Virus record (IMG/VR): IMGVR_UViG_3300036987_000471
Span: 1-42,122 of that record
Reading direction: 5' to 3' (one strand)
DNA from: a virus
Lineage: Duplodnaviria; Caudoviricetes
Length of the DNA stretch: 42,122 bases
Shown: piece after piece, positions 6,408-27,135 of the stretch
How the letters are laid out: every line of letters starts with the position of its first letter
Position numbering within the stretch: position 1 is the stretch's first letter
Made by a program: the position numbers and the translations under genes
The notes under the pieces: model-generated
What the model saw: only the letters and a program-made list of their open reading frames with translations
Databases searched by the model: none
Told to the model about the DNA's origin: nothing

Positions 6408-6421
6408 GAAATGAAGAAGAA

Positions 6422-11602: not shown

Positions 11603-12764
11603 GTTGAAGCCCGGCTGGACCCGCGTGCGCTTCGGCGACCTAGCCCATCACATTACCGACCGTGTGGACAACCCCTCCGAGGCGGGCGTAGAGCGCTATG
11701 TGGGCTTGGAACACCTCGACTCGGACAGCCTGACCATCCGCCGCTGGGGCACGCCGGACCAGGTGGAATCCACCAAGCTCCGCTTCCAACCCGGCGACAT
11801 CATCTTCGGCAAGCGCCGCGCCTACCAACGCAAATTGGCCGTCGCCGACGTCGAGGGCATCTGCTCGGCTCACGCCATGGTGCTGCGCGCCAAGCCCGGA
11901 GCTGTCCTGCCCGACTTTTTGCCCTTCTTCATGCAAAGCGATGTGTTCATGGAACGGGCGCAGTCGATCTCGGTAGGCTCCTTGTCGCCGACCATCAACT
12001 GGAAGACCCTTGCGTCAGAAGAGTTCGCGTTGCCGCCGCTGACCGAGCAGCAACGGCTACTTCAGCTAATTCAATCGGCTACACAAACCATATATGAGCT
12101 GTACAACTTAAACCAAGTTCTTAAGGTGCTTCGCGGTTCTTTAAGAGTGGAATATTTCGAAGATAAAGCGAGACACATTAGGCTCATTCGCGACTGTGTG
12201 GTTAATAACGGAGTTCAAATCGGACCATTTGGTGCCCAGCTGCATCAGTCTGACTATAGTGAGGAGGGCGTTCCGGTCATCATGCCGCAAAACATGATCG
12301 ATGACAAGGTACTAGTTGACGGCATCGCGCGCGTCCCTTTGGAGATTGCACGAAGATTGAGTGTCCATCAGGTCCAGGTTGGTGATATCCTTCTACCTCG
12401 TCGTGGTGAGCTTGATCGTCGTGCTTTGATTACTAGTGAGAATGATGGTTGGCTATGTGGAACAGGGTCAGTTCGAATCAGACTTGATCCATCAATACCT
12501 TCAGATCTGGCAGTTGAGTCACTTGCATCGCGGAAGTCAATGATGTGGTTGAACGCAAATGCCGTTGGCACGACGATGCAAAACATAAACACTTCAATCG
12601 TAGAGTCCATACCTCTTTCACTCCCATCATCTGAAGCGTGGGCTTATGCATCTCAGTTGTTTGGTTTTGTTAGGAGTGCTCTGTCTGCGGTAGAAGTACG
12701 GCGCGAGATGGCTATCAAACAAATACACAAGGCGGTGAACGGAGAAAACTCTGATGCCCTTTAA
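11595..12764 (+). CDS. hsdS: Type I R-M specificity subunit
   Basis: GWTRVRFGD start, two TRDs, LPPLTEQQR conserved region, GPFGAQL in TRD2. GGAGG RBS before ATG 11595. Confidence 0.92.
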   Translation: MSELKPGWTRVRFGDLAHHITDRVDNPSEAGVERYVGLEHLDSDSLTIRRWGTPDQVESTKLRFQPGDIIFGKRRAYQRKLAVADVEGICSAHAMVLRAKPGAVLPDFLPFFMQSDVFMERAQSISVGSLSPTINWKTLASEEFALPPLTEQQRLLQLIQSATQTIYELYNLNQVLKVLRGSLRVEYFEDKARHIRLIRDCVVNNGVQIGPFGAQLHQSDYSEEGVPVIMPQNMIDDKVLVDGIARVPLEIARRLSVHQVQVGDILLPRRGELDRRALITSENDGWLCGTGSVRIRLDPSIPSDLAVESLASRKSMMWLNANAVGTTMQNINTSIVESIPLSLPSSEAWAYASQLFGFVRSALSAVEVRREMAIKQIHKAVNGENSDAL

Positions 12765-15717
12765 TGAAGCCTCCACCGTCGAGACTCTCATCCGCGACCT
12801 CCTCTGCGGCGGCGTCACCCACCACACGGCCATCGGTCCCGGCTTGGCCCGTCGCGACGGCGCCCTCTCCGGCATGGGCTGGCACTACTTGGCGCTCCAG
12901 CACCTGCCCCGGCGCACCAATGATGTCTTCGTGGAGGCCTGGCTGCGCGAGGCGCTGATCCGGCTGAACCCGGAGATCGCCGCCCAGCCCGAGCGTGCCG
13001 ACGAGGTGCTCTACAAGCTGCGGGCCATTGTGCTGGCCGTGCGCAGCGACGGGCTCATCCGCGCCAACGAGGAACTGACCGCCTGGCTGCGCGGGGATCG
13101 CAGCATGCCCTTTGGCCCCGACCACCAGCACTGCGGCGTGCGCCTGATCGATTTCGAGACCCTGGAGAACAACGAGTACGTTGTCACCACCCAGTTCAGC
13201 TTCCGCGCCGGCCCCGCCGAGCGCCGCGCCGACCTGGTGCTGCTGGTTAACGGGCTGCCGCTGGTCCTGATCGAGGCCAAGACGCCCGTGCGCCAGGCCG
13301 TCAGCTGGCTGGACGGCGCCCTGCAGGTCCACGACGACTATGAGGTCAACGTCCCCGAGCTCTTCGTCGCCAATGTCTTCAGCGTGGCCACCGAGGGCAA
13401 GGAGCTGAAGTACGGCAGTGTACGCATGCCCGTCAACCTCTGGGGTCCCTGGCGCGAGGACGAGGCCGTGCCGGGCACGCTGGCCGGACTCCAGGCGGCG
13501 GTGGGCGGACTGCTGCGGCCCGCCGTGGTGCTGGACATCCTGGCCCACTTCACCCTCTTCGCCACGGACAAGAAGAAGCGCCGCATCAAGGTGGTCTGCC
13601 GCTACCAGCAGTACCAGGCCGCCAACCTCATCGTCCAGCGCGTGCTGGCTGGCCGGCCTCGCAAGGGCCTCATTTGGCACTTCCAGGGATCGGGCAAGAG
13701 CCTGCTGATGGTCTTCGCCGCGCAGAAGCTGCGCCTGCAGCCGGCGCTGGGGAACCCGGCGGTGATCATCGTGGTGGACCGCATCGATCTGGACGCGCAG
13801 ATCAGCAGCACCTTCCACGCCAGCGACGTGCCCAACCTGGTCAAGGCCGAGACCCGCGCCGACCTCCAGCGGCTGCTGCAGCAGGACACGCGCAAGATCA
13901 TCATCGCCACCATCCACAAGTTCGGTGAGGCCGAGGGACTGCTCAACGACAGCGAGCGGCTGGTGGTGCTGGTGGACGAGGCCCACCGCACCCAGGAGGG
14001 CGACCTGGGCATCAAGATGCGCACGGCCCTGCCCAATGCCTTCCTCTTCGGCCTGACCGGCACGCCCATCAATCGCCGCGACCGCAACACCTTCTATGCC
14101 TTCGGCGCCGATGAAGACCGTCACGGCTACCTGAGCCGCTACGGCTTCGAGGAGTCCATCCGCGACGGCGCCACCCTGCCCCTCACCTTTGAGCCGCGCC
14201 TGGTGGAGCTGCACATCGACAAGGCCGCCATCGACGAGGCCTACGCCGCGCTAACGGGCGAGCTAAGCGACTTGGACAAGGACAACTTGGCCAAGACCGC
14301 TAGCCGCATGAGCGTGCTGGTAAAGGCCCCGGAGCGCGTGCAGGCCATTTGCACAGACATCGCCATGCACTTCCAGGAGAAGGTGGCCCCCAATGGCTTC
14401 AAGGGCATGGTGGTGACCTTCGACCAGGAGTGCTGCCTGCTCTACAAGGCGGCGCTGGACCAGCTCCTGCTCCCGGAGGCCAGCGAGGTGGTGATCTCCG
14501 CCACGGGCAGCGACCCGCGCTTCCGACCCTACGACCGCGGCCGCGACGAGGAGGAGCGCCTGCTGGACCGCTTCCGCGATCCCAATGATCCGCTCAAGCT
14601 GCTCATCGTTACGGCCAAGCTTCTGACGGGCTTCGACGCGCCCATCCTGCAGGCCATGTACCTGGACAAGCCCCTGCGCGACCACACGCTGCTGCAGGCG
14701 GTCTGCCGCACCAACCGCACCTACGGTAACCAGAAGAGCCACGGCCTCATTGTGGACTACCTGGGCGTCTTCGACGATATCGCCAAGGCCCTGGAGTTCG
14801 ACGAGCAGGGCTTCCGCAAAGTGATCTCCAACATCGAGGCGCTCAAGGATCAACTCGCAACGGCGGTGCAGAAGTGCATGGCCTACTTCCCCGGCGTGGA
14901 CCGCGCCCAGACGGGCTACGAGGGACTGATGGCGGCCCAGGAGTGCCTGCCCAACAACACGGTGCGCGACGCCTTCGCCGCGGACTTCAGCGTGTTGCAG
15001 CAGCTCTGGGAGGCAATCTCGCCCGACCCCATTCTCACCCGGTTCGAGGTGGACTACAAGTGGCTCTGCCAGGTCTACCAATCCGTCCAGCCCACCTCGG
15101 GCGCGGGCAAGCTGATTTGGCACAGCCTGGGCGCCAAGACCATCGAACTCATCCACCAGAACGTCCACGTGGACGCTGTGCGCGATGATCTGGAAGCCCT
15201 GGTGGTGGATGCTGAGTTGCTTGAAGCCGTGCTGGATACGCCGGACACGGGCAAGAAGGCCAAGGAGTTCGAGCTGAAGCTCACGGCCCGCCTGCGCAAG
15301 CACATGGGCATCCCGCGCTTCAAACGGCTCTCGGAGCGACTGGAGGCGCTGAAGGAGAAGCACGAGCAGGGGCTACTCAACAGCATCGATTTCCTCAAGC
15401 ACCTACTGGAGCTGGCTCAAGAACTCCTGCAGGCCGAGCAAGAAACGCCGCCCCAGGAAGACGAGGACCGCGGCCGTGCCGCCCTGACGGAGCTGTTCCA
15501 GCAGGTGCGAAATGAGCAGACCCCGGTCATCGTGGATCGCGTGGTGGCTGACGTGGACGAGATCGTCAAGCAGGTGCGCTTCGCCGGCTGGCAGCACACC
15601 AGCCAGGGCGAGCGCGAGGTCAAGCAGGCCCTGCGCCGCACGCTGCTGAAGTACCGCCTGCACCAGGACCTGGAGCTGTTCGGGCAGGCTTACGGTTACA
15701 TCCGGCAATACTATTGA
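12754..15717 (+). CDS. hsdR: Type I R-M restriction subunit
   Basis: DLVLLVNGLPLVLIEAK nuclease motif, HFQGSGKS Walker A, DEAH, LTGTP, LLTGFDAP, QAVCRTNR. Confidence 0.95.
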   Translation: MPFNEASTVETLIRDLLCGGVTHHTAIGPGLARRDGALSGMGWHYLALQHLPRRTNDVFVEAWLREALIRLNPEIAAQPERADEVLYKLRAIVLAVRSDGLIRANEELTAWLRGDRSMPFGPDHQHCGVRLIDFETLENNEYVVTTQFSFRAGPAERRADLVLLVNGLPLVLIEAKTPVRQAVSWLDGALQVHDDYEVNVPELFVANVFSVATEGKELKYGSVRMPVNLWGPWREDEAVPGTLAGLQAAVGGLLRPAVVLDILAHFTLFATDKKKRRIKVVCRYQQYQAANLIVQRVLAGRPRKGLIWHFQGSGKSLLMVFAAQKLRLQPALGNPAVIIVVDRIDLDAQISSTFHASDVPNLVKAETRADLQRLLQQDTRKIIIATIHKFGEAEGLLNDSERLVVLVDEAHRTQEGDLGIKMRTALPNAFLFGLTGTPINRRDRNTFYAFGADEDRHGYLSRYGFEESIRDGATLPLTFEPRLVELHIDKAAIDEAYAALTGELSDLDKDNLAKTASRMSVLVKAPERVQAICTDIAMHFQEKVAPNGFKGMVVTFDQECCLLYKAALDQLLLPEASEVVISATGSDPRFRPYDRGRDEEERLLDRFRDPNDPLKLLIVTAKLLTGFDAPILQAMYLDKPLRDHTLLQAVCRTNRTYGNQKSHGLIVDYLGVFDDIAKALEFDEQGFRKVISNIEALKDQLATAVQKCMAYFPGVDRAQTGYEGLMAAQECLPNNTVRDAFAADFSVLQQLWEAISPDPILTRFEVDYKWLCQVYQSVQPTSGAGKLIWHSLGAKTIELIHQNVHVDAVRDDLEALVVDAELLEAVLDTPDTGKKAKEFELKLTARLRKHMGIPRFKRLSERLEALKEKHEQGLLNSIDFLKHLLELAQELLQAEQETPPQEDEDRGRAALTELFQQVRNEQTPVIVDRVVADVDEIVKQVRFAGWQHTSQGEREVKQALRRTLLKYRLHQDLELFGQAYGYIRQYY

Positions 15718-15869
15718 GTGGGCCGTGGACTTCTCGGAAGCGGCTGGTGTAAAATGAGGTATCCCTTCGGTTGCGTGAGTTACCTTACTGATCGCAAACA
15801 GGGTCGTTTTCGGACATCGAGCAATATTCCGAATTATGGTTGCACGGCATTGAGATCAAGAGATTCCTC

Positions 15870-15903
15870 TTGCAAAATCGGTTTCTGGAGTTAACTTATA
15901 AGT
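15870..15903 (+). promoter_or_regulatory. Putative promoter/operator of the TAC operon
   Basis: TTGCAA-N16-TAACTT. A 10 bp palindrome ACTTATAAGT (15894-15903) overlaps the -10 and the start codon. Confidence 0.4.
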
Positions 15904-16420
15904 GAAGACCGTCGTCAAGCTCAACGCGTGGATGGAGAATGATGGCAGATGCGTGTATCACGCACGGCTGGCTGATCATGAGCAATCATTAGCGGGTGAG
16001 CTTGCTCAGACAGTTCGAGGGAACCAGGAGGCCACGGAACAACTGCAAGAGATTCTGACGCAGGTACGCCTGATGTGCATACGGTTCAGATTTCAATTGC
16101 AGTACTTCCGTCACGAGGGACACCGCCATGACAGCCTTTATGCCCTACCTGACAAGCGTGAAGCACATCCCATCATTCGTCTCTACTGCCTTAAACTGAG
16201 CGAAAGCACCTTGATCCTGGGGGGAGGCGGCTACAAGCCGGACGGCCGCCCTTATCAGGAGCACCCTGTGCTCAACTGGCATGCTGAGCTACTCCAGAAG
16301 CTAGAAGCAGCTATCGAAATTGCGCGCTGCAATGGGTCGATAAGATTCTCCAGCGCCGGTCGATTGGAAGGCATGTTTCCACTTCAATTTGAGATTGATC
16401 ATGATCAATATCCTGGATGA
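15902..16420 (+). CDS. Putative RelE/HigB-like toxin of a TAC system
   Basis: FRHEG...LYALP...IRLYCLKL....LILGGGGYK pattern; lies upstream of an XRE antitoxin. Start uncertain. Confidence 0.6.
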   Translation: MKTVVKLNAWMENDGRCVYHARLADHEQSLAGELAQTVRGNQEATEQLQEILTQVRLMCIRFRFQLQYFRHEGHRHDSLYALPDKREAHPIIRLYCLKLSESTLILGGGGYKPDGRPYQEHPVLNWHAELLQKLEAAIEIARCNGSIRFSSAGRLEGMFPLQFEIDHDQYPG

Positions 16421-16766
16421 CCTGCTGAACGGCACCCCCGCCCACCTTTCGAAAAAGGTGGAGCACCTGATGGAGCTGGCTGCATCCATCGTGGAGCGAC
16501 TCGAAGCCAAAGGCCTGAGCAAGGCAGATCTGGCGCGAAGGCTGGACATGGAGCCGCCTCAGCTCACCCGTATTCTTTCAGGTTCTGCCAATGTGACAAT
16601 GGAGACCATTGCCCGTCTGGAAACGGCCCTTGGGGAAAACTTGATCATTATTCCGGTGCCCTCAGAACAACGTATCCCCTTCGAGATCCAAAGTCAAGAA
16701 ACGACTGAAATCTGGGGTGCACAGGCCTTTCTTCCTAAGTATAAAATGGCTGACTGTAGAGGCTAA
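16401..16766 (+). CDS. HigA-like XRE HTH antitoxin with C-terminal extension (ChAD-like)
   Basis: GLSKADLARRLDMEPPQLTRILSGSANVTMETIARLETALG followed by a ~40 aa tail. Confidence 0.8.
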   Translation: MINILDDLLNGTPAHLSKKVEHLMELAASIVERLEAKGLSKADLARRLDMEPPQLTRILSGSANVTMETIARLETALGENLIIIPVPSEQRIPFEIQSQETTEIWGAQAFLPKYKMADCRG

Positions 16767-16768
16767 AC

Positions 16769-17197
16769 ATGGAAACGGAAGAGAGAGTGGTCTCATTTCA
16801 ATTAATGACCGTCTCGATCGAGAGGTTTTCATTTGATGCGACTACCAGTACTGATGGTGAAAAATGGATTGAACAAGGATTAAGGTATGGTTCCAATATT
16901 GAAGAAGAATCTATTATTATCTGGCTCTCTGTAAAATTGATGACAGGCACTACCGAATCACCTAGTTGTTATGCAGACATTGTCTTAACTCTTAAATTTA
17001 GGATTCAGTCTTTCACTGATGTCTTTGATATTGATGATAAATTGGGTGTGAAGATCCCAGATCAGCTTTTACGATCACTAATAGCTATTACGTATTCCAC
17101 TGCTCGTGGGGTTTTGCTCGGAAAAGGGGTTCGTGCTGTATTGCCAGTAATTGATCCTGGATCGCTTCTTGTAGGACAAAGTCGAGTGACTGAATGA
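16769..17197 (+). CDS. SecB-like chaperone
   Basis: FQLMTVSIERFSF...beta strands...LIAITYSTARGVL...VLPVIDP, 142 aa, third gene after a TA pair. Confidence 0.7.
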   Translation: METEERVVSFQLMTVSIERFSFDATTSTDGEKWIEQGLRYGSNIEEESIIIWLSVKLMTGTTESPSCYADIVLTLKFRIQSFTDVFDIDDKLGVKIPDQLLRSLIAITYSTARGVLLGKGVRAVLPVIDPGSLLVGQSRVTE

Positions 17198-17291: not shown

Positions 17292-17549
17292 TTAGCCTTG
17301 AGCTTTTGTCGGCGTGAGTGCTTCCAACTTCTCACTGATCTGCTCGACACGTTCCTTCAGCGCCTGCATCCGCCCCATCACCGTGGCCATCTCCGCCTGA
17401 AGCTGCGCATCCTGCCCAAGCTGCAGGAAGGCCTGCTGCAGCTGGACATCCACGCGGCCCAGCCGCTTGCGGGCGCCGCCCAGGGTCTCGCGTCCCAGCG
17501 CCACCTGCCCCGGCACGAAGGCCTTCACGTCCCAGTTCTGCTTTGCCAT
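17292..17549 (-). CDS. Small coiled-coil protein (paralog of 22214-22477)
   Basis: AAGGAG RBS; MAKQNWDVKAFV...LQQAFLQLGQD...VMGR shared with the paralog. Confidence 0.75.
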   Translation of the reverse strand: MAKQNWDVKAFVPGQVALGRETLGGARKRLGRVDVQLQQAFLQLGQDAQLQAEMATVMGRMQALKERVEQISEKLEALTPTKAQG

Positions 17550-17669
17550 TGCTCGTCTCCTTGCTTGGTGCCCAGGTGCTTCTGCACGTGGGTTGTGATC
17601 GGGTGTGTCAGTTTTCAATCGGCGCTGGCACGGCGGTAGCGCGTCTGCCGTCCGCGGCCGTGATAGCGC

Positions 17670-17990
17670 TCATCGCAGGTCGGTTCCCTTGCTGTTGCGA
17701 GTGAGTACCATGCATCGAGGATGATAGCCGGCGGCGGTGACCGTGGCGACGGCAGACCAGAAGCGGCTGACTTTGTCGGTGCGGTTGACGCAGAGGGTTG
17801 GCTTGTGCTGCCAGGCGATCCGGATGCCTTGGGCACCCGGGTTGGCGTCCACCAGCAGGCGCCGGACGTCGTCCAGGGTGGGCCTGGGCGGCGTGGGGCG
17901 TGCGACGTTGGGGAAGGCCTGCCGAGCTGCAGCCTCGCGCGCCAGGAGGGCCTGGGCGAGGTGGCTGGGCATCTGGGTGAAGTCAGGCAT
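17670..17990 (-). CDS. Hypothetical protein (106 aa)
   Basis: AAGGAG RBS; part of the co-oriented array. Confidence 0.65.
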   Translation of the reverse strand: MPDFTQMPSHLAQALLAREAAARQAFPNVARPTPPRPTLDDVRRLLVDANPGAQGIRIAWQHKPTLCVNRTDKVSRFWSAVATVTAAGYHPRCMVLTRNSKGTDLR

Positions 17991-18031
17991 TGTGCTGCTC
18001 CTTGTTTCGCTGGTGGCGGCTGGCTAGAGGG

Positions 18032-18373
18032 TCACGATGTCCTTTGCCCAGAGCGGGGGCGTTGGATTTTCCCAAGGCAGTCGATGTAGGCGTTGGCGCT
18101 GGCGAGGAGGGTGTTCAGCCTGCTCATCGCGCAGTGCTGTCCCCGGCGGGCCTGGATCACGCGGTGCATGAACCATTCCGGGCTTCCGTAGGGCTTGGCG
18201 AGGGCCTTGCGCCGGGTTGCCGTGGGCTCTTGGAGGCATTTCGTGTTGAGGTCCCCCCGGTCGACGTTTGGGAATTCGACGTGGCACAGTGCCCAGTAGT
18301 GGTCGGCGGTGCTTCCTGCGCGGACCATGGCTGCTGCCAAGCGAAGGGTGGTGAGGGCGTTGTGCTTCTTCAT
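18032..18373 (-). CDS. Hypothetical protein (113 aa)
   Basis: AAGGAG RBS; part of the array. Confidence 0.6.
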   Translation of the reverse strand: MKKHNALTTLRLAAAMVRAGSTADHYWALCHVEFPNVDRGDLNTKCLQEPTATRRKALAKPYGSPEWFMHRVIQARRGQHCAMSRLNTLLASANAYIDCLGKIQRPRSGQRTS

Positions 18374-18394
18374 GGGTCTGTCTCCTTGGGTGTT

Positions 18395-18625
18395 TCAGTT
18401 GCGCGCGGGGCCCAGGTAGCTGGCGGCCAGTTTCTCGTTGTCCTCGGGAGTGCTGATGTCGATGCACTCCAGGGCGAAGCTCACCTCTTTGCGCCAGCGG
18501 GCCTTATCCAGCTGATCGAGGCAGCCCAGCTCCAGGCGCATCCAGGCTTCCACCCAGCGGGGCGAAACGTTGGGGCGTCCGCGGCGGGCCAGTTCGGCTT
18601 GGATGGCCTTTTGGTAGTGCGACAT
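18395..18625 (-). CDS. Hypothetical protein (76 aa)
   Basis: AGGAGG RBS; part of the array. Confidence 0.7.
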   Translation of the reverse strand: MSHYQKAIQAELARRGRPNVSPRWVEAWMRLELGCLDQLDKARWRKEVSFALECIDISTPEDNEKLAASYLGPARN

Positions 18626-18639
18626 GGTGTCCTCCTGGG

Positions 18640-18975
18640 TCAGCGGTTGAGCAGCTGGGTGATTTCGGCGGCGGTAGCGTGGCGGAAGCGGATGCCGCCC
18701 TTGGGGCCGACCACCAGTTGGACGATGTGGCCTTCGGCCCGGACGGCGAAGTGGGTCCCGGGCGTGGCGATCACGTCCCTGAATCGTGGCAGGGTCTGTA
18801 GGAGCAGGCGGGCGCGCGGGTCGCTGGCCAAGAGGGCCTTCTGCGTGGCATGGTCCTTGGCTTCGGCCTGGCGGCGGCGTTCGTCCTGCCTGTAGGTCTC
18901 TGCGTGTTCGAGTTGGGCGTCGGCCTCGATCAGGTGGGCGACCGGCGTGGCTTGGTAGAAGTCTCTGCGTGTCAT
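18640..18975 (-). CDS. Hypothetical protein (111 aa)
   Basis: GGAGG RBS; part of the array. Confidence 0.7.
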   Translation of the reverse strand: MTRRDFYQATPVAHLIEADAQLEHAETYRQDERRRQAEAKDHATQKALLASDPRARLLLQTLPRFRDVIATPGTHFAVRAEGHIVQLVVGPKGGIRFRHATAAEITQLLNR

Positions 18976-19041
18976 GGGGGCCTCCAGGTGGTCTGGCCCG
19001 GGCCGGCCTTGGGGGCCGGCACCGGGCGCGTGGGTGGTTAA

Positions 19042-19755
19042 TCAGCAGGCGCTGTTGTGCTGGCTGATGGCGGTCTTGGGCATCGTGTCGGCCCAGCCGA
19101 TGAGCTGGTAGCCGTAGCGGTTCAGGATGGTCTCGTGGCGGCTGGCCTCCCAGCGGCCGTTCTTGGCCCAGAAGTGGATCCGCTGCTCCCAGACCTTGCA
19201 GCCGGGGTTCTTCTGGTAGGCGCCGCAGTGGTCGTCGCTGTAGGCCCGTTCGGGCTGGTTGATGTCGGCCATGGTCTTGATGCCGATGGTGCGGGTTTCC
19301 TTGCCGATGGTGAGGGTGACCTGGGCGCGGCCGCCGGGGGCCATCAGGTGTCCGATTTGCTGCTTGATGTCGCCGACCAGGAGGCGGGCGCCGGTGGCGG
19401 CGGTTAAGGCCAGCTCAGCGGCTTCGCTGCCCCTGGTGTGGCCGTCCAGGGCCTTGCGGGTCTCGGTGGCCTTGGCCTCGGCGACCTTGAGGTGCGCCAG
19501 CAGGGCGGGCAGCAGGGTGTCGGCGTCAACCCGGCTGATCGTCGTCACGGACCCGAGGCGGTGAAAGGTGTCCGGGTCTGCGATGAGGTCGCTGTAATTG
19601 GCCAGGAGGATGCAGGTCTCCTTGACCTTGGCGATGGTTTCGGCGTCGATGGTGTTGCGCATGATGTGAAAAGTCCCGTCGACCAGAGCGGCCAGGACCA
19701 GGGTGGTCTTGCCTGTTTCGTCCGTGTGGCTGATGCTGAAGTGTTGGGTCGTCAT
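19042..19755 (-). CDS. Hypothetical protein (237 aa), first gene of module A
   Basis: ATG 19755 (MTTQHF...) follows the GGGAGAC RBS in repeat A. Confidence 0.7.
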   Translation of the reverse strand: MTTQHFSISHTDETGKTTLVLAALVDGTFHIMRNTIDAETIAKVKETCILLANYSDLIADPDTFHRLGSVTTISRVDADTLLPALLAHLKVAEAKATETRKALDGHTRGSEAAELALTAATGARLLVGDIKQQIGHLMAPGGRAQVTLTIGKETRTIGIKTMADINQPERAYSDDHCGAYQKNPGCKVWEQRIHFWAKNGRWEASRHETILNRYGYQLIGWADTMPKTAISQHNSAC

Positions 19756-19761
19756 TGGTCT

Positions 19762-19862
19762 GTCTCCCTTTGTGTTGGGCATAACTACGCAGAGATAGCT
19801 TGCGAAGTCAAGTAAAAGATCAGAAACATTCGGACATTTATGAATAGTAATAACAGTCAAAG
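19762..19862 (-). repeat. Module repeat A (~101 bp: dyad, promoter-like boxes, RBS)
   Basis: Aligns without gaps to B, C and D. Minus strand TTGACT-N17-GTAGTTA...GGGAGAC. Dyad-like site at 19827-19854. Confidence 0.9.
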
Positions 19863-19885
19863 AGATGCGTTAGGTAGATTAACGG

Positions 19886-19905
19886 AAAACGCCCCTTTCG
19901 GGGCG
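19886..19905 (-). terminator. Intrinsic terminator ending module B
   Basis: Minus strand CGCCCC-GAAA-GGGGCG-TTTT, just downstream of gene 19919-20311. Confidence 0.7.
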
Positions 19906-19918
19906 CTTGGTGTTGGGA

Positions 19919-20311
19919 TCAGGCGGCGGCTTCGGCTTGGGCCGGCTGGGCCGTGGGGCGGGCGCTGGCTGCCGGGGGAATCTCCTCCCAGCCCAGGGCG
20001 GCGCAGACCATGACCTTCTTGATGCCCGGCTTCCGCAGGTCCTGGACCACCAGGATATCGCTGGTGCTCATGCTGGTGTGCCAGAGGCCGGCGGCTTCCA
20101 GGAAGGGGCGGGCCTCGCCGTTCGGGCTCCACCGTTCGCCCTGCAGGGCGGCATAGATGCGCTCCTTGCTGGGCTGGTGGATGGTCAGCAAGTGAACGTG
20201 GGTTGTGGCGAGCTCCTCGGCGGTGGCGGGCAGGTCGCCCAGGGCGGCCCAGTTCAGCTTGGCCAGGCTGGGGAAGGCGGTCAGGTCGGTGATGATCGGG
20301 GAGTGGGACAT
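19919..20311 (-). CDS. YodL-like domain protein
   Basis: ERIYAALQG...HTSMSTSDILVV...MVCAALGWEEI resembles the YodL motif (H-S-[LM]-S-x-x-D-[VI]). AAGGAG RBS. Confidence 0.55.
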   Translation of the reverse strand: MSHSPIITDLTAFPSLAKLNWAALGDLPATAEELATTHVHLLTIHQPSKERIYAALQGERWSPNGEARPFLEAAGLWHTSMSTSDILVVQDLRKPGIKKVMVCAALGWEEIPPAASARPTAQPAQAEAAA

Positions 20312-20344
20312 GGGGGTCTCCTTTCGTGGTGTGCCGGTTGTTTG

Positions 20345-20602
20345 TCATCCCTTGCAGTGGGCAAGGAGCTCCTGCTCGCCGGCCCAGGCGGCGAAGTCGG
20401 TCTGGACGCAGACGAGGATGAGGGAGATGCCGCCGTGGCCCAGGCGGCAGCCTTCGTTGAAGACGATGGACTGCCCGGTCCGGATCTGGTCCATGACCTT
20501 TTCCAGGCGGCCGCTTTGCATGTAGCGGGCGGGCCCGCTGATGTTCTTGGTCTGCGGGTCGTAGGTGAAGCGGCCGACGATGGTGGGGGTGGTGGCGTTC
20601 AT
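20345..20602 (-). CDS. Hypothetical protein (85 aa)
   Basis: GAGGA RBS; part of the array. Confidence 0.6.
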   Translation of the reverse strand: MNATTPTIVGRFTYDPQTKNISGPARYMQSGRLEKVMDQIRTGQSIVFNEGCRLGHGGISLILVCVQTDFAAWAGEQELLAHCKG

Positions 20603-20661
20603 CGGGTCCTCTTTTGGGGAAGGGCCCGGGCGCGCGCGGCGCCCGGGCGCGTGGTGTCGTG

Positions 20662-20964
20662 TCAGCAGATGCAGCTGGTCCAGGCGCTCTTGCGGCCGTA
20701 GCCCAGCTGGCGGCCTTCGACCAGGTAGACCACCTCTTCCTTGGCGGGCTCGGGCTCGCTGGGGAGGTTCTCCGTCGGGAGGCCTTGCTCTTCGCGCCGG
20801 TCGCGCTCGGCCTCCAGATCGGCCTCGTCCATGGCGCTGGTGGTGGTGATGCCCTGGATGTTGTTTTCGAAGGGCCAGCTATGCTGGGTCATCAGGCGGA
20901 CCTCGATGCCGGGGTGGGTTTCGGCCAGCTCTTCGAGTGTGTTGATCAGGTCTTCGATCTTCAT
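20662..20964 (-). CDS. Hypothetical acidic protein (100 aa)
   Basis: GAGGAG RBS; MKIEDLINTLE...EVRLMTQHSWPFE...VVYLVEGRQLGYG. Confidence 0.7.
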   Translation of the reverse strand: MKIEDLINTLEELAETHPGIEVRLMTQHSWPFENNIQGITTTSAMDEADLEAERDRREEQGLPTENLPSEPEPAKEEVVYLVEGRQLGYGRKSAWTSCIC

Positions 20965-20975
20965 GGTTCAGCTCC

Positions 20976-21170
20976 TCAGTAGGTCAGCTTGGAAACGAAC
21001 TCGCCTTCCTCGTCGCGGATCTCGATGGTGCAGCGGCCAGATCCCTTGGGGTCGGGGATGACCGTGTAGGTCCAGCCCTCGTCCTCGCCCTGGGCCAGCT
21101 GGGCGGCCGCATGGTCGGCCTCGGCCTTGTTGGCGAAAACCCGGGTGGGGGCGTTGGTGAGTAGCAACAT
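20976..21170 (-). CDS. Hypothetical protein (64 aa), first gene of module B
   Basis: ATG 21170 follows the GGGAGAC RBS in repeat B. Confidence 0.7.
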   Translation of the reverse strand: MLLLTNAPTRVFANKAEADHAAAQLAQGEDEGWTYTVIPDPKGSGRCTIEIRDEEGEFVSKLTY

Positions 21171-21175
21171 GGTGT

Positions 21176-21276
21176 GTCTCCCGTTTTGTTGGGCACAACT
21201 ACGCAGAGACACCTTGCGAAGTAAAGTAAAAGATCAAAAAGTTTCGGACATTTATAGATGTCCAAAACACTCAAAA
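21176..21276 (-). repeat. Module repeat B
   Basis: Contains a near-perfect 11-6-11 dyad GTTTCGGACAT-TTATAG-ATGTCCAAAAC (21241-21268). The -35-like box is TTTACT here. Confidence 0.9.
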
Positions 21277-21300
21277 GGATGTGATAACCAGATATATGCG

Positions 21301-21321
21301 AAGCGCCCCTTTCGGGGCGCT
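21301..21321 (-). terminator. Terminator-like hairpin ending module C
   Basis: AGCGCCCC-GAAA-GGGGCGCT-T, the same hairpin as at 19890-19905; weak U-tract. Confidence 0.6.
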
Positions 21322-21344
21322 GGTGACGGGGGTTGGGGCTGAAG

Positions 21345-21842
21345 TTAGCCTGCGATTCGCCAACCGCGATCCAGGCCGACCGTCTTGGCGCCGGCGATGG
21401 GTTGCCCGGCATCGAGGCGGACCCTTAACCCAACCTTGGCCCGATAGACGCGGCCCGTGACTAGCATGCCCAGGCCGAACAGGGCTGGATACATCCGTTT
21501 GACCCTTTCGCCGACCTTGGGCACGGGGAGGTTGTCCGTGCCGGGCCAGACGCCGGTCTTTTCCAGGGCTTCCCAGGCTTGGCGTTCCGCTTCTTCCTGG
21601 GCGAAGCGATGCCGGTACTCCCGGCGCAGCAGTTCGGCGTAGAGGGCTGCGATCTCGGCCTTCTCTGGTTCCGTCCTGTCGTTGAGGTAGCCGGAAAAGC
21701 GCTTGTAGGCCCGCTGCAGGGCGGCGTCATCCAGGGCGACCAGATCGGCGCGCGCCTGGGTGTTGTAGGCCCGCATCCAGGTCCTGTCGATGCGCTTGGC
21801 GAGGGCGGTTTCCACGTTCATGATGTTGAAGTTGGTCGCCAT
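21345..21842 (-). CDS. Hypothetical protein (165 aa)
   Basis: GAGGAGAAGGA RBS region; part of the array. Confidence 0.7.
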   Translation of the reverse strand: MATNFNIMNVETALAKRIDRTWMRAYNTQARADLVALDDAALQRAYKRFSGYLNDRTEPEKAEIAALYAELLRREYRHRFAQEEAERQAWEALEKTGVWPGTDNLPVPKVGERVKRMYPALFGLGMLVTGRVYRAKVGLRVRLDAGQPIAGAKTVGLDRGWRIAG

Positions 21843-21855
21843 GGGTCCTTCTCCT

Positions 21856-22032
21856 CTAGTAGTTCAGGGTCGCGGTGGTGAAGGTTTGCAGGTAGGCGCG
21901 GGCGGCGTCCTCGCCTTGCGTGTTGACCAGGGCCAGGGTGTGCTTGTAGATCTTCGTGTTCCAGTCCCGCTTTACGTTGGCCAGGAAGGTGTTGTTGGCG
22001 GCGGTTTGCTTGGTGTTGGTCTTGGTCGTCAT
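21856..22032 (-). CDS. Small protein (58 aa, MTTKTNTKQTAANN...TLNY), first gene of module C; absent from the ORF track
   Basis: Translated by hand. ATG follows the RBS in repeat C, TAG at 21856-21858. N-terminal MTTKTNT is identical to that of 22513-22938. Confidence 0.7.
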   Translation of the reverse strand: MTTKTNTKQTAANNTFLANVKRDWNTKIYKHTLALVNTQGEDAARAYLQTFTTATLNY

Positions 22033-22039
22033 GGTGTCC

Positions 22040-22140
22040 GTCTCCCTTTGTGTTGGGCATAACTACGCAGAGACACCTTGCGAAGTCAAGTAAATGGTGA
22101 GAAATCCTTGGACTATTTTGGATGTTTAAAACGGTCAAAA
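22040..22140 (-). repeat. Module repeat C
   Basis: Aligns without gaps to A, B and D; dyad-like site at 22105-22132. Confidence 0.9.
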
Positions 22141-22163
22141 GGATAGCCAACGCGGATTAAAGG

Positions 22164-22188
22164 AAAAGGCGCCTGGTTGGCGCCTTTT
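22164..22188. terminator. Bidirectional-type intrinsic terminator ending module D
   Basis: AAAAGGCGCC-TGGTT-GGCGCCTTTT. Confidence 0.75.
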
Positions 22189-22213
22189 AGGTCGGTTTGT
22201 GGCCCTGGGCTGT

Positions 22214-22477
22214 CTATCCTTCGTCAGGCGCCGGATGCGGCAGCTTGGCGTCCAGGCTGGCAGCCACGCCGTCCAGGCTGCCCTTCAGCTCCTGCAGGCG
22301 GCCCATGACGGCGCCCATCTGCTGCTGCAGGTCCTGATCCTGCCCCAGCTGCAGGAAGGCCTGCTGCAGGGCGCCCTCCAGGCGGACCACGCGCTTGCGG
22401 GCGCCGTCCAGATTCGTCTTGCCTTCGGCCAGCTGCCCGGCCACGAAAGCCTTCACGTCCCAGTTCTGCTTTGCCAT
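22214..22477 (-). CDS. Small coiled-coil protein (paralog of 17292-17549)
   Basis: AAGGAG RBS; MAKQNWDVKAFV...LQQAFLQLGQD...VMGR. Confidence 0.75.
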   Translation of the reverse strand: MAKQNWDVKAFVAGQLAEGKTNLDGARKRVVRLEGALQQAFLQLGQDQDLQQQMGAVMGRLQELKGSLDGVAASLDAKLPHPAPDEG

Positions 22478-22512
22478 CGGTGAGTCTCCTTGGTGAAAAG
22501 GTGTTGTCCAGG

Positions 22513-22938
22513 TTACTTGCTTGCCCGGCCCAGCTCGAAGGCGGCGCGCAGGGCGGCCTTCAGCTGGTGGACGCTGACCTCGTGGAAGTCCAGGTCGTCC
22601 ATGTTCCGGGTCTCCAGGGTCTCGATGCCCATGTGGACCTGGGCCAGCGCCACCAAGTGGTCGTCCTCGATGTCCAGGTGGGTCTCCTCGGTGGGGGTCT
22701 CCCAGAGCTTGGCGGCGGCGGCAAAGCCGATCCAAGCTCCGTTCTCGTCCAGGCCGCGCTGGGCCAGTTCGTGGCGGGCCATCTGGGTGGCGTCCACCTG
22801 GCCGGTGGCCATGTGGAGGAGCAGGGCGGTCTTGGCGGTCTGAAGGATGTAGGCGTCGTCGCCGAGCTTCTCAACGAGGGCGCCAAAGGTCATGGGGCTG
22901 GTGGCGGCGCCGTTCTGGGTGTTGGTCTTGGTCGTCAT
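22513..22938 (-). CDS. Two-domain small protein with C-terminal DUF6900-like domain; first gene of module D
   Basis: C-terminal IETLETRNMDDLDFHEVSV..LKAALRAAFELG; N-terminal ARHELAQRGLDENGAWIGF. Confidence 0.65.
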   Translation of the reverse strand: MTTKTNTQNGAATSPMTFGALVEKLGDDAYILQTAKTALLLHMATGQVDATQMARHELAQRGLDENGAWIGFAAAAKLWETPTEETHLDIEDDHLVALAQVHMGIETLETRNMDDLDFHEVSVHQLKAALRAAFELGRASK

Positions 22939-22943
22939 GGTTC

Positions 22944-23044
22944 GTCTCCCGTTTTGTTGGGCGTAACTACGCAGAGAAAGCGCCGCAAGTCAAGTTAAAA
23001 GTGAGAAATCTTTGGACATTATAGCATCAATAAAACAGTCAAAG
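22944..23044 (-). repeat. Module repeat D, abutting the recombinase stop codon
   Basis: Aligns without gaps to A-C; dyad-like site at 23009-23036; ends 2 bp from the recombinase stop (23047-23049). Confidence 0.9.
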
Positions 23045-23046
23045 AC

Positions 23047-23895
23047 TTAGCTGCCTGGATTTCTGCGCTTTTCAATGGCCGCCCGCAGCTCCTCGTCCGC
23101 CACATGGGCATAGATGGCCGTGGTCTTGGGACTTTCGTGGTCCAGGGCCACCTGGACGAGACGCAGGTTGCCCGTCTGCCTCAGCAGGCTGGTGGCGAAG
23201 GTGTGGCGGAGGAGGTGCGGGTGGACGGAGCGGTTGATCCCGGCCAGGGCCGCCCACTGGTCCAGCAGGCGCCGAATGTGCCGGTCCCCGATGGGCTTGC
23301 CGCTGGACGACCGGAACAGGGGCGTGTGGGCTCGCTGACGGGCCACCAGGGGTTTCAGCAGGTCCCGGGTCTCCGCCGGCAGGAAGCGCGTCCGCTGCTT
23401 GCCGCCCTTGGTCGTCACGCGTACCAGCTTTTCGCCCAGGTCGACGTCGCCCGCCCTGAGTGCGGCCGCTTCTGCGACACGGATCCCCGTGTCCAGCATC
23501 AGGCAGAAGAGGGCGCGGTCGCGCGGCTGGCTGCGGATGTCCGTCCGGGCCTTCAGGGCTTTGCGCAGGGCTTTCTCCTCGACCTCGGACAGGAAGTCGG
23601 GGGTGGGCGGGAAGGCGCGGGGGAGCCGGATGGCGCCCAGGTCGGCGGCCAGGGGGTGCTTGGCCCAGGCCAGGAACTGGGTGAGGATGGTCAGCCCCCG
23701 CCGGACGGATCCACTTGCCCTTCCCTCTCGCGCGACGTACTGTGTAATCTGCTGCAGGGTCAGACCGTCCAGGGTTTGGCCCTCGTCGGCGAGGTGGCGC
23801 GCGAAGCGCTTCAGCTCGCCCTGGTAGGGCGCCAGGGTCCCTGGCGCCAGGTGCCTGGCCCGGAGGTGTTCCATGAAGTCCTGAATGCGGTGCAT
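23047..23895 (-). CDS. XerC/XerD-like tyrosine recombinase (282 aa)
   Basis: SAM-like N-terminal domain (APGTLAPYQGELKRF). Catalytic set R (TGIRVAE), K (TKGGK), HLLRH, LDH, Y (TTAIYAHV). No arm-binding domain and no IntI-specific insertion. Confidence 0.92.
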   Translation of the reverse strand: MHRIQDFMEHLRARHLAPGTLAPYQGELKRFARHLADEGQTLDGLTLQQITQYVAREGRASGSVRRGLTILTQFLAWAKHPLAADLGAIRLPRAFPPTPDFLSEVEEKALRKALKARTDIRSQPRDRALFCLMLDTGIRVAEAAALRAGDVDLGEKLVRVTTKGGKQRTRFLPAETRDLLKPLVARQRAHTPLFRSSSGKPIGDRHIRRLLDQWAALAGINRSVHPHLLRHTFATSLLRQTGNLRLVQVALDHESPKTTAIYAHVADEELRAAIEKRRNPGS

Positions 23896-24000
23896 GCTGT
23901 CTCCTGATGGTGTGCCTGGCGGGCCGGGTTCCGGGTTCCGCCGGGTCGTTTCCGGACCTAAGCGTGTGGATAAGATGGGGCCAAGTCAAGTCGAAAAGGC

Positions 24001-25605
24001 TTGATGGACAAGGCAATGGCACTCAAGAAGCCCAAAGTGGACCGCCTATCTGCGGACGAGATCTCCCTCGCCCAGATCCTGCTGGATCCGGTGGCCTTTG
24101 CCGCGGCTTTCCTGACGCAGCTGGATGGCGAGACGGGCGGCCAGCCCATGGCCCTCTGGCCCCACCAGCAGGAGGATGTGCGGGACACGGAGCGGCAGAT
24201 CGTCCACCAGGATGGCCGGGGCGTGGGCAAGACCGTGGACATCGTGGTCCAGGTCCTGCACTACGGGGTCACGGCCCGGAACGGCCGCATGCTGGTGACG
24301 GCGCCCAACGACGGCCACTGCAACAAGGTCATCGAGGAGGTGGAGGCCCACCTGCAGAACAGCGAGTTCCTGCTGGGCCTGGTGGCCGTGGACCAGAACG
24401 GCCGGCACCGCATCACGCGCAAACCCTACTACCAGATGCACTGGAAGAACGGCACGATCATCTACATCCGCCCGGCCGGCCCCACGGGCAAGAGCGTGCG
24501 CAGCTTGCACTGCGACCGCGTGCTGGTGGACGAGGCCGCCTGGTACCCGGAGCCCGCCTGGCGGGCCCTGCGCCGCGTGCTCAACCGCGGCGGCCAGATG
24601 CGCGCCTATTCCAACCCGAACGGCCTGCGCAACACGACCTACTACCGCATCACGACGGACAAGAAGAGCGGCTGGAAGGTCTACCACTGGCCCAGCTGGA
24701 TCGTGCCGGGCTGCACGGAGGACCACATCGAGGCGGACGCCCGATTCTTCGGCGGCCGCGACACGGCGGGCTTCCAGCACGAGGTGGCGGGCGTGCACGG
24801 CGCGCCGTCCTATGCGGCCTTCAACATCCGCCAGCTCCAGGCCAGCCTGCGGAAGCTGGAGAAGCTTTACAAGGTGATCCGCCTGGATGGGGAAGAGTTC
24901 GATGGCCTGCAATCCGTGGACGAAGCGACGGATCGCCTGAGCGGGGTGCTCGATGGCTTGGAGGAGAACCGCGGCGTGTACTGGCTGGGCGGCGACCTGG
25001 GCTACACCAACGACCCCAGCGAGCTGACGGTCTGGCTGGACGACGAGCGCGGGCGCCTGGTGCCTGTCCTCCGAGTCCACAACGAGCACCTGCCCTACAC
25101 CTACCAGGCGGCGCTCATCGCCCTCCTTGACGACCACTTCGACTTTGCCGGGCTGGGCCTGGATGCCGGCTCCAACGGGCTGTCCGTGGAGCACATCCTC
25201 ACCACCGAGGACCGCTACACGGATCACCAGTTCGCCCATCGGCTGGAGACCTACGACTTCGGCGGCAGCCTGACCACGGGCTACGATACGCAGGGCCGGC
25301 CCAAGACCCAGCGCGTCAAGGAGTACATGACCAGCCTGATCAATGGGCGCTTGGCGAATCGGACCATTCTCTTCCCCGCGGGCGAGGTGGATCCGGACTG
25401 GGAGGACCAGTTCACCACCCAGACCTACTCGCAGAGCCAGGCGAGCCGGATCGTGTACTCCAAGGGCAATGACCATATCATCGACTCCACCCGCTGCGCC
25501 GTCCTGCGCAAGGAGCGCGAGCTCTTTAAGCAGTTGGTGGACGATGGGTCGATGGGCGAGGCCGAGTTCGTGATGCCGGTCCTGACCGGCGACATCTTCG
25601 TGTAG
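24001..25605 (+). CDS. terL: Terminase large subunit
   Basis: Walker A GRGVGKT, Walker B VLVDEAA, C-motif SNP, RNase H-like GGDLG...D...DHIIDS. Start may be ATG 24004 or 24016. Confidence 0.88.
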   Translation: MMDKAMALKKPKVDRLSADEISLAQILLDPVAFAAAFLTQLDGETGGQPMALWPHQQEDVRDTERQIVHQDGRGVGKTVDIVVQVLHYGVTARNGRMLVTAPNDGHCNKVIEEVEAHLQNSEFLLGLVAVDQNGRHRITRKPYYQMHWKNGTIIYIRPAGPTGKSVRSLHCDRVLVDEAAWYPEPAWRALRRVLNRGGQMRAYSNPNGLRNTTYYRITTDKKSGWKVYHWPSWIVPGCTEDHIEADARFFGGRDTAGFQHEVAGVHGAPSYAAFNIRQLQASLRKLEKLYKVIRLDGEEFDGLQSVDEATDRLSGVLDGLEENRGVYWLGGDLGYTNDPSELTVWLDDERGRLVPVLRVHNEHLPYTYQAALIALLDDHFDFAGLGLDAGSNGLSVEHILTTEDRYTDHQFAHRLETYDFGGSLTTGYDTQGRPKTQRVKEYMTSLINGRLANRTILFPAGEVDPDWEDQFTTQTYSQSQASRIVYSKGNDHIIDSTRCAVLRKERELFKQLVDDGSMGEAEFVMPVLTGDIFV

Positions 25606-25614: not shown

Positions 25615-27135
25615 GTGAAGCTGTTCAGCCGCGGGCTCTTTCCCGTCCGCCAAACGGCGGAAGGCGTGGTCGAGGTGGGCGACGAGATGGCGGCCCAGGC
25701 GGCCACGATCGATCCCTTCGCCAGCGAGACTTCCGTGGACGGGATCCCCAAGGAGTGGCACGAACGCGGCGCCAAGGCTTGGGAGTACTTCCAGCAGGAA
25801 CCCATCGTCAACAACTGCATCAACGCCTGGCGGACCCTGGCCGTGGGGGATGACTTCACCCTCCTGGCCAGCACGCCCGAGCTGCAGAAGGACGTGGATG
25901 CCCTGAAGCGACGCTTGAACCTCAAGCGCTGGTTGAAGGACCAGCTGCTGCAGCTCTTGACCAAGGGCGAGGCGGCGGCGTTCAAGGAGTACGGCGGGGA
26001 GGAGAAGGCCAAGAACGAGGAGGGCAAGCCGCTCTATCAGGACTTTGAGCGCATCAAGGTCCTGAACCCCCTGCTGCTGGAGACGACGGTGAAGGATGGG
26101 CAGGTGGTGAAGGTGCGCTCCTTCCTGCAGGACGAGGGTGGCCTGCCCCGGGATCACACGGACGTGTCGCTGGAGCAGTTCCGGCGCTGGATGTGGGACG
26201 CGCCCGACTTCGCCGAGCACGGCACCAGCATGGTGCTGCCGGCCTTCGAGTCCATCGAGCTTCTGCGCGACTACCGGCGCGCCGAGCGCGCCATCGCCAA
26301 GCGCTGGGCCACGCCCATCCGCTTCATCAAGGTGGGTGGCCAGTTCGGCAAGACCGTGGTCATGCCCAAGCCCAGCATGCTGAAGGACATCAAGAAGATC
26401 GTCGATGGCATGAGCGCGCGCCAGGGCGCCGTCGTGCCCTTCTACGTGACCATCGAGACCTACGGCGCCGAGGGCGAGACCCTGAAGACCGAGGAGAAGG
26501 TGAGGGAGGCCAAGAGCGACGTCATCGTCGCCATGGGATTTACACGCGCCCTGGTCTCCGGGGACGGGGCCAACTTTTCCACGGCCAGCCTGGGCTTCGC
26601 CAAGATCCAGCTCATGCTGTCGGACCTAAGGGACATGGCGCGCGACATGCTCCAATGGGTCCTGGACGATTGGCTGGCCATGCGCGGCAAGGAAGGCGAG
26701 AGCCTGCACATCGCCTTCCCGGAGATCGACCTGTCCGCCGGCGCCGACCAGCGCAAGGTCCTGGTGGACCTCTACGACCGTGGGCTCATCAGTGTGCGCA
26801 GCCTGCAGGCCATGATGGGCCTGTCCCCCGACATCGAGCAGGCGCAGATCGGGCGCGAGACCAAGCAGGTGATCGCGCCTCTGTCGCCCGGGGACATCGT
26901 GGGCCTGGCCCAGCAGGAGATGCTGACCCAGGACCAGGTGGCCTTCCTGCTCAACCTGGCGGAGCGGTTGAAGGGGGCGCCCAAGGAGGACCCAGGCGCC
27001 GCGGCGCCGGCGCCCCAGACGGGCGACGTGGCCGGGCTGTATCAGCAGGTGGACCAGCTTATCCGGGCGCGGGCCCGCACGCTTGCAATGGAGCGCGTCC
27101 AGGCCTTGGACGCCGCGGAGCCGCAGGCCGCCTGA
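25615..27135 (+). CDS. Portal protein
   Basis: AGGAGG RBS with GTG. 506 aa between TerL and MuF; HGTSMVLPAF and GDGANFSTA motifs are portal-like. Confidence 0.8.
   Translation: MKLFSRGLFPVRQTAEGVVEVGDEMAAQAATIDPFASETSVDGIPKEWHERGAKAWEYFQQEPIVNNCINAWRTLAVGDDFTLLASTPELQKDVDALKRRLNLKRWLKDQLLQLLTKGEAAAFKEYGGEEKAKNEEGKPLYQDFERIKVLNPLLLETTVKDGQVVKVRSFLQDEGGLPRDHTDVSLEQFRRWMWDAPDFAEHGTSMVLPAFESIELLRDYRRAERAIAKRWATPIRFIKVGGQFGKTVVMPKPSMLKDIKKIVDGMSARQGAVVPFYVTIETYGAEGETLKTEEKVREAKSDVIVAMGFTRALVSGDGANFSTASLGFAKIQLMLSDLRDMARDMLQWVLDDWLAMRGKEGESLHIAFPEIDLSAGADQRKVLVDLYDRGLISVRSLQAMMGLSPDIEQAQIGRETKQVIAPLSPGDIVGLAQQEMLTQDQVAFLLNLAERLKGAPKEDPGAAAPAPQTGDVAGLYQQVDQLIRARARTLAMERVQALDAAEPQAA

Follow-up and report, generated by a model that had tools for sequence, protein, structure and literature searches.

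Does the tyrosine recombinase encoded in the virus record IMGVR_UViG_3300036987_000471 (Duplodnaviria, Caudoviricetes) move the array of small genes that lies behind it, or did the array arise in another way? The window analyzed here is the entire record of 42,122 bases. Its array is divided by repeats of about 101 bp, and the initial annotation proposed that the recombinase captures, excises or shuffles the modules between them, as an integron-like cassette system. We consider it rather likely that the repeats are instead terminator-promoter-ribosome binding site (RBS) cassettes resembling the promoter-early stem-loop (PeSL) cassettes of T4-type phages, shuffled by homologous recombination; the array is probably not a phage integron. 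This reading is built on the anatomy of the cassettes, their conservation in 23 copies and the gene-level reshuffling among eight loci.

Repeats in the Window

Four ungapped repeats of ~101 bp (at 19762, 21176, 22040, and 22944; copies A to D) were confirmed, with 72–83 of 101 positions identical in pairwise comparisons, and no fifth copy was found in the 42,122 bases by a profile of the four. All four contain the TTGACT/TTTACT-N17-GTAGTT pair, and the GGGAGAC RBS lies 5–7 nt ahead of the ATG, as described initially. Copies A, B, and C are each preceded by a hairpin predicted to act as a terminator (−16.4 to −18.0 kcal/mol; raw fold energies without a shuffle control). The first repeat, the 101-bp copy D, is indeed separated by 2 bp from the stop codon of the intact recombinase gene. 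Positions in the repeat are counted from TTGACT (position 0); between the recombinase stop and position −50 there are 3 nt in the window compared to 73–662 nt in seven relatives, and the 2-bp adjacency is peculiar to the window. The repeats and hairpins are the following:

22938..23045, minus strand: repeat D, with degenerate dyad (23012-23043), −35 box (22988-22993), core (22956-22973) and RBS; no upstream terminator
22164..22188, minus strand: predicted terminator hairpin upstream of repeat C (sequence, fold)
22034..22141, minus strand: repeat C, with dyad (22108-22139), −35 box (22084-22089), core (22052-22069) and RBS
21302..21321, minus strand: predicted terminator hairpin upstream of repeat B (sequence, fold)
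21170..21277, minus strand: repeat B, with family dyad (21244-21275), copy-specific 10/11 dyad (21241-21268), −35 box (21220-21225), core (21188-21205) and RBS
19890..19905, minus strand: predicted terminator hairpin upstream of repeat A (terminator scan, fold)
19756..19863, minus strand: repeat A, with dyad (19830-19861), −35 box (19806-19811), core (19774-19791) and RBS

Arrays in Related Loci

An alignment of 35 recombinases was used to find close loci in genome and viral contigs, and nine stretches were fetched. Among 7997 candidates scored, 40 recombinase relatives showed 50–79% identity and one showed 39%. Arrays were present in seven relatives originating from three genomes, namely L228 (3 repeats), L229 (4), L230 (3), L231 (1), L232 (3), L234 (3), and L236 (2), giving 23 copies together with the window. 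The repeat therefore recurs behind recombinase homologs in one to four copies, and each locus has its own set and order of genes, in agreement with the variable arrays that had been proposed initially as a test. A profile of all 23 copies gave no further match in 255 loci. Within the 12 genomes examined from the phylum of G001, the recombinase family was found in six (14 places) and the repeat in three (17 matches).

No repeat was present within 7 kb downstream of the close recombinases in L163, L233, L003, and L006; L164 and L233, apparently one element, were counted once, and L004, L005, L007, and L235, with ~2 kb or less of downstream DNA, were left out of this count. The terminase of the array-less L163 is 98% identical to that of the window. 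Exact-pattern scans of viral contigs did not find the repeat, and a scan with the DUF6900 gene likewise gave nothing. A metagenome scan with the recombinase alignment found relatives of at most 46% identity among the matches listed, and downstream of recombinases with 35–39% identity no repeated leader was detected by self-comparison. The arrays thus form a small sample, drawn from three genomes and the window.

Two side observations were made in these loci. A RadC-family gene lies directly behind the recombinase in L163 (6185-6622), whose terminase and portal are 98–99% identical to those of the window. L234 and L236, which share a recombinase clade, do not contain the terminase, portal, and MuF genes between recombinase and methyltransferase, and are candidates for remnants or satellites.

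Conservation of the Repeat

Between the −35 box and the RBS, the alignment of the 23 copies contains no gaps. The copies match their consensus at 86% in the −35 region, 70% across the 17-nt spacer, 94% within the core (positions 20–38), and 74% at the RBS, compared to 56% from −50 to −18, and all 13 invariant positions are located from the −35 box onward. The alignment showed an AT-rich stretch upstream of the −35 box, and a Shine-Dalgarno sequence and start codon behind it, with the ATG 55–57 nt from the −35 start in 19 copies and 81–85 nt in the other four. A hairpin of −12.7 kcal/mol or lower was found inside the 130 nt upstream of 20 of the 23 copies (raw energies without a shuffle control). 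Such segment-wise conservation is the profile expected of a promoter, and the promoter-genes-terminator structure suggested initially for each module is supported.

The predicted promoter of the recombinase gene supports TTGACT as the −35 box in this lineage, since it has the same box and spacing: TTGACT was present upstream of the gene in 10 of 10 aligned loci, followed 17 nt on by a CAnnCT-type box that has A at position 2 and T at position 6 in nine of them. At the expected −10 position of the repeat, the conserved core has an invariant CGT and TT. Since GTAGTT has no A where one is usual, and conservation of the core extends further than a −10 box would, a bound regulator or another sigma factor is suggested. 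We also considered a single-strand promoter formed by a hairpin between the −35 box and the core (11-7-11, the family-wide dyad with the highest mean, 6.0/11), and rejected it, as changes in the left arm are uncompensated.

A cassette consisting of hairpin, AT-rich stretch, −35 box, 17-nt spacer, core, and RBS precedes the small accessory genes and likely acts as a terminator-promoter unit. Transcription would begin within the core or directly behind it. The main sigma factor of the host probably reads these promoters, given that the recombinase promoter shares TTGACT and the spacing. A phage regulator that binds the over-conserved core and the degenerate dyad upstream would probably silence the promoters in the lysogen, and the hairpins probably insulate adjacent operons from each other.

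Gain and Reordering of Genes

The genes of the window array are listed below; all are on the minus strand.

22513..22938, minus strand: F0 (DUF6900, 141 aa), placed first or second behind the first repeat in all 8 arrays
22214..22477, minus strand: F1 (87 aa, no family), paralogue of 17292-17549
21345..22032, minus strand: F14 (21856-22032, 58 aa) and F13 (21345-21842, 165 aa)
20976-21170, 20662-20964, 20345-20602, and 19919-20311, minus strand: F5, F2, F15, and F17, no Pfam, PHROG or PADLOC family
17292..19755, minus strand, block downstream of repeat A: F6 (19042-19755), F10 (18640-18975), F3 (18395-18625), singleton (18032-18373), F20 (17670-17990), second F1 (17292-17549)

Gene families were clustered from our own ORF calls, and with these heuristic gene calls and array ends the 23 modules had 19 distinct compositions, only F0-F1 (four times) and F0-F2-F1 (twice) recurring. 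Among 34 gene-gene junctions without a repeat, 26 occurred in a single locus. F14-F13 are adjacent in the window, whereas L229 has the order F13, repeat, F14, each gene behind its own repeat. F2 was located behind a repeat in three loci and behind another gene in three, and F5 behind a repeat in one locus and behind three different genes in three others. The DNA blocks shared between relatives start at −96, −52, −30, −8, −6, −4 to −2, and +20, and being ~75–90% identical they have blurred ends. Several unrelated gene families have an MTTKTNT-like peptide start in common, which points to exchanges inside coding sequence. F0 is directly behind the first repeat in 7 of 8 arrays, making the recombinase-proximal gene the most constant one. 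Modules that move as units, with the newest in first position, were thus not found in these loci.

In contigs from four groundwater runs, the depths of four joints (~7, 39, and 61–71 in X1, X3, and X5) point to a second strain; these joints are located within genes or next to hairpins and not in the repeats. Among the 12 joints listed from the four contig runs (sides of 21–63 bases) there was no repeat-to-repeat joint, in contigs that drop rare forms. Longer fetches of the relatives showed integrated prophages of roughly 75 kb, and G010 contains five related prophage loci within one 4.0-Mb assembly, which would give ample chance for recombination between arrays. Gain and loss of genes and changes in their order are likely due to homologous or microhomologous recombination and not to the neighboring recombinase; crossovers between related prophages would probably occur at any point of the 60–100 bases of leader that they share, as well as in N-terminal coding stretches and whole genes that they have in common.

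The Recombinase and Its Proposed Site

23047..23895, minus strand: Xer-like tyrosine recombinase (PF00589 and PF02899; CB and catalytic domains, without arm-binding domain), divergent from the terminase gene
23941..23990 (approximate bounds), minus strand: predicted recombinase promoter, TTGACT-N17-CACGCT, then GTCC
24001..25605, plus strand: terminase large subunit (PHROG 2), first gene of the morphogenesis operon and divergent neighbor of the recombinase

The recombinase (282 aa) is intact, and R139, K163, H227, R230, H253, and Y262 are invariant in 35 aligned family members. It scored 154–179 bits with the NCBIfam XerA, XerC, and XerD profiles, all under the cut-off, and the closest solved structure is XerD. 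The integron integrase profile TIGR02249 gave 87.1 bits in two stretches against a cut-off of 265, NF011946 gave 50.9 bits against 435, and the best stretch in a comparison with IntI4 spans only positions 204–269. Judged by these profiles, the recombinase is Xer-like and not an integron integrase.

The terminase gene is the divergent upstream neighbor of the recombinase in 10 of 15 distinct close loci, and also in many relatives of 35–39% identity. P1 Cre circularizes or resolves phage DNA, and by analogy the recombinase would probably be a core phage enzyme acting in this way at the terminase end of the genome. All three prophages with fetched ends encode a separate ~400-aa integrase having an arm-binding domain. 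Arm-binding enzymes are the usual phage integrases, whereas simple ones mainly act in dimer resolution or for particular elements, according to the available text of PMC8138268; given this classification and the separate integrase, the internal recombinase is probably not the integrase.

The initial annotation placed in each repeat, at a common offset, a 28-bp site of 11-6-11 geometry. This stood for copy B, in which 10 of 11 positions pair, and not for copies D (5), C (4), and A (3). Over the 23 copies the proposed site (−43 to −16) had a mean of 3.7/11, none of the other 22 exceeding 7/11, and the window-wide mode of the 11-6-11 score is 3. The dyad of copy B alone is better than expected by chance, being equaled in 0.13% of 1500 shuffles of the four copies at spacer 6 and in 0.7% at spacers 6–8. 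It is private to B, was listed by the terminator scan as a hairpin followed by a T run, and may be a second terminator.

The best family-wide 11-6-11 dyad is located at −48 to −21, five bases from the site proposed. A conserved 11-6-11 border site with matching spacers, as in Xer or pdif systems, was not found at either offset. Xer- and Cre-type sites are most symmetric beside the spacer and need matching spacers; here, the two pairs that border the spacer are kept by only 4 and 6 of 12 dyad-bearing copies, and the 6-bp spacers within one locus agree at 2–5 of 6 positions, never at 6. The dyad would be explained no less well by an operator ~70 bases upstream of the start; the recombinase promoter, too, has a GTCC-like motif where transcription is predicted to begin. 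The other possibility raised initially, repeated promoters with operators, fits better than module movement. The nearby HTH gene (16389-16766) is unlikely to encode the regulator, because it belongs to a three-gene cargo unit (PADLOC PDC-M64) and the only fetched relative with this unit is array-less.

Alternative Explanations

The recombinase might recognize a 13-6-13 dyad (−50 to −19) and excise or insert promoter-gene-terminator modules in an integron-like or Tn916-like way, with unlike spacers being tolerated. The dyad geometry suits a tyrosine recombinase, the GAC/GTC and TTT/AAA pairs hold in 8–11 of 12 dyad-bearing copies with one compensatory change, shuffled consensus leaders yield a 10/13 dyad in 2–4% of trials, arrays are found only behind this recombinase family, and a GTCC-like motif follows the recombinase's own predicted −10 box. 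The dyad is, however, absent in 11 of 23 copies, including all those of L231 and L236, although the recombinase of L231 is the closest to that of the window (73%), and the pairs next to the spacer and the spacers themselves are as poorly kept as described above. Besides, modules are not conserved units, block ends scatter, the recombinase-proximal gene is the most constant, and no repeat-to-repeat joint was among those listed, a weak point given the rare forms that contigs drop. With the dyad unconserved, the exchange points scattered, the enzyme not of IntI type, and the recombinase also occurring without an array, capture or shuffling by the recombinase is not supported, and we consider it quite improbable. 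Equally little weight is given to an Xer-like recombinase, unrelated to IntI/attC, that would move self-expressing modules via the 13-6-13 site on top of ordinary recombination.

Rather doubtful is the explanation that co-regulated promoters were spread by duplication and kept alike by selection, gene turnover being illegitimate recombination at gene edges. It fits with most novel junctions involving no repeat (26 of the 34 junctions without a repeat are confined to a single locus), and within-locus compared to between-locus likeness (core 0.90 vs. 0.90, dyad region 0.46 vs. 0.40) gives little sign of homogenization. Several shared blocks nevertheless start inside repeats, which argues against repeats having no role in crossovers, and hairpins track the upstream gene and RBS variants the downstream gene, as expected of exchanges within the leader. 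It is unlikely, but otherwise compatible with the PeSL-like explanation, that the repeats are promoters for a sigma-like protein of the phage and not for the host sigma factor. A ~235-aa protein with a weak Sigma70_r4 match is present in five related prophages, and its predicted fold (mean pLDDT 78.5) gave sigma factors or sigma-containing polymerase entries in all matches listed, with a best E of 1e-3 and none passing 0.001; the invariant CGT and TT stand where the −10 box should be, and the exact two-box pattern is not enriched compared to the control outside arrays in five genomes. Yet an array-less prophage on G010:C6 also carries the gene, and the core (up to three mismatches) is nowhere else in the fetched prophage DNA, so that the factor would have no target there; in the window, the gene lies beyond the end of the contig.

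Several points weigh against the PeSL-like cassettes shuffled by homologous recombination that we favor. The best family-wide dyad has a mean of 4.96/11 compared to 2.91 ± 0.29 in shuffles (maximum 3.96 in 2000), a comparison that is overstated, since the copies share ancestry and the offset was picked as best of many. The 13-6-13 dyad, degenerate as it is, is recognizable in 12 of 23 copies, a few copies retain its right arm only, and one shared block begins at −30, the start of that arm. All 17 repeat matches in the 12 genomes fall within ~4 kb downstream of the recombinase family, and the array-less L163 and L233 recombinases form a separate clade, so that recombinase lineage and array travel together; physical linkage explains this, and function would too. 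Linkage and decay likewise explain the recombinase-array association and the right-arm remnants, as site-specific events would. Around the recombinase gene, a comparison of 10 loci gave no conserved dyad or recombinase site. A sigma-70 scan called none of the four window repeats, GTAGTT having T at position 6 and no A at position 2. The heuristic gene calls and blurred block ends count here as well, and promoter activity, start sites, and crossovers are predictions from sequence, and no mini-circle was observed.

Comparison With Known Systems

The PeSLs of the T4-type phages RB49 and phi1 are promoter-early stem-loop cassettes with experimental support (PMC2839356; PMC4122927). In the available text of PMC2839356, promoter and terminator activity and mini-circles are shown, and the authors liken PeSLs to integron cassettes and found no dedicated recombinase. 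As far as these texts describe them, PeSLs share with the repeats a ~100-bp composite of stem-loop, AT-rich stretch, −35 and −10 boxes, Shine-Dalgarno sequence, and start codon, which precedes orphan genes in hypervariable regions where gene shuffling by homologous recombination was proposed. The intergenic stem-loop (20 of 23 copies, by the raw energies above), the AT-rich stretch followed by −35 box, Shine-Dalgarno, and start codon, and orphan genes that vary between relatives were all found here. The phages of this study are temperate and not T4-like, with 1–4 copies in one array compared to ~50 per genome in PeSL phages; the −35 box is good but the −10 box is off the sigma-70 consensus, a degenerate dyad is present in half of the copies, an Xer-like recombinase gene lies alongside, and promoter activity, which together with mini-circles is shown for PeSLs, is predicted here. 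The repeats are not classed as PeSLs because they do not have the sigma-70 consensus, nor as an integron or pdif array, as the defining features of those are absent. In anatomy and genomic role, the PeSL is the closest system.

Integrons consist of IntI, attI, and attC cassettes. The array resembles them in having a tyrosine recombinase gene beside a one-directional array of small variable genes split by repeats. It differs in that the recombinase is transcribed in the array direction, each module has its own predicted promoter, the first array position is the most constant, and modules are not units. Repeats A, C, and D did not show attC-type folding (z −1.0 to +0.5 compared to shuffles), only B folding well, and each copy has one GTTRRRY/RYYYAAC box inside its core, with no partner in B, C, and D. 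Phage-borne integrons and attC clusters have been reported (PMC9892861, in the text available). With Xer/dif and pdif systems and P1 Cre the locus shares a recombinase of CB and catalytic domains only, XerA/XerC/XerD as closest profiles, and a dyad with a 6-bp center in some copies; it differs in a recombinase under all Xer cut-offs and a degenerate dyad that is weakest next to the spacer, with spacers that are unlike.

Phage Setting and Cargo

The phage family consists of temperate myophages of an uncultured lineage and was not described in the literature searched, a search with most subscription papers outside it and supplements not covered. The host lineage is taken from source labels of homologs only, four recombinase relatives being labeled Candidatus Delongbacteria by their records. 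Metagenome runs containing the window stretch were from groundwater and coal. On the plus strand, a PD-(D/E)XK nuclease region is followed by cargo with type I restriction-modification and the PDC-M64 unit; then come the array and recombinase on the minus strand, and the terminase, portal, MuF fusion, DNA methyltransferase, and tail-sheath genes. An Rfam search over window positions 1–25000 (E up to 0.1) gave no match.

The MuF head protein (27135-31634) is fused to ~1,100 further residues without a Pfam family, and the fusion is conserved across the phage family. A 42-base inverted repeat (2341-2600; arms 2361-2402 and 2540-2581) flanks an AT-rich stretch upstream of the nuclease gene, is kept in the same orientation in L228, L233, and L248, has no Rfam match, and is a candidate origin, structured RNA, or recombinase site. 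In the related prophages, the sigma-like ~235-aa gene heads a replication operon (L250:123-830, L251:4111-4806, L252, L254, L248) and has 31 relatives.

The cargo (8592-17197) contains two tandem hsdM genes, hsdS, hsdR, and the three-gene PDC-M64 unit, found in one fetched relative; its genes all point toward the recombinase and its content differs between relatives. Between AT-rich cargo genes, attC-like elements were detected at 5629-5685, 6339-6411, and 7116-7240, one full and two partial. RYYYAAC and GTTRRRY are the end-box motifs of attC; the full copy has both and folds no better than shuffles. Similar elements are present in L163, L228, and L233. The elements of the window are possibly true integron cassettes captured in phage cargo. 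Four prophages contain another element, of 135–170 bases and 79–86% identity, with a CCTAAC start directly at the ends of different cargo genes (window 8226-8394; L163:12574-12741; L228:7483-7650; L233:4537-4683 and 12216-12348), a candidate attC derivative, insertion-sequence end, or cargo entry site.

PADLOC gave nothing convincing on the array genes of the window, the one match being a 16-bit coiled-coil match to ZorA; F1 had no match in Atlas, and a literature search for DUF6900 found no paper. None of the array genes is of known function, and early host-takeover or counter-defense functions are our guess.

Implications

Whether such cassettes have a dedicated recombinase was left open in the available text of PMC2839356, and the comparison made here points to no. 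About 20 families of small genes without known function, gathered in one hotspot next to defense cargo, provide a list for counter-defense screens. At the probability given above, these arrays would show that self-contained expression cassettes of the PeSL kind also occur in temperate phages, here those of an uncultured lineage.

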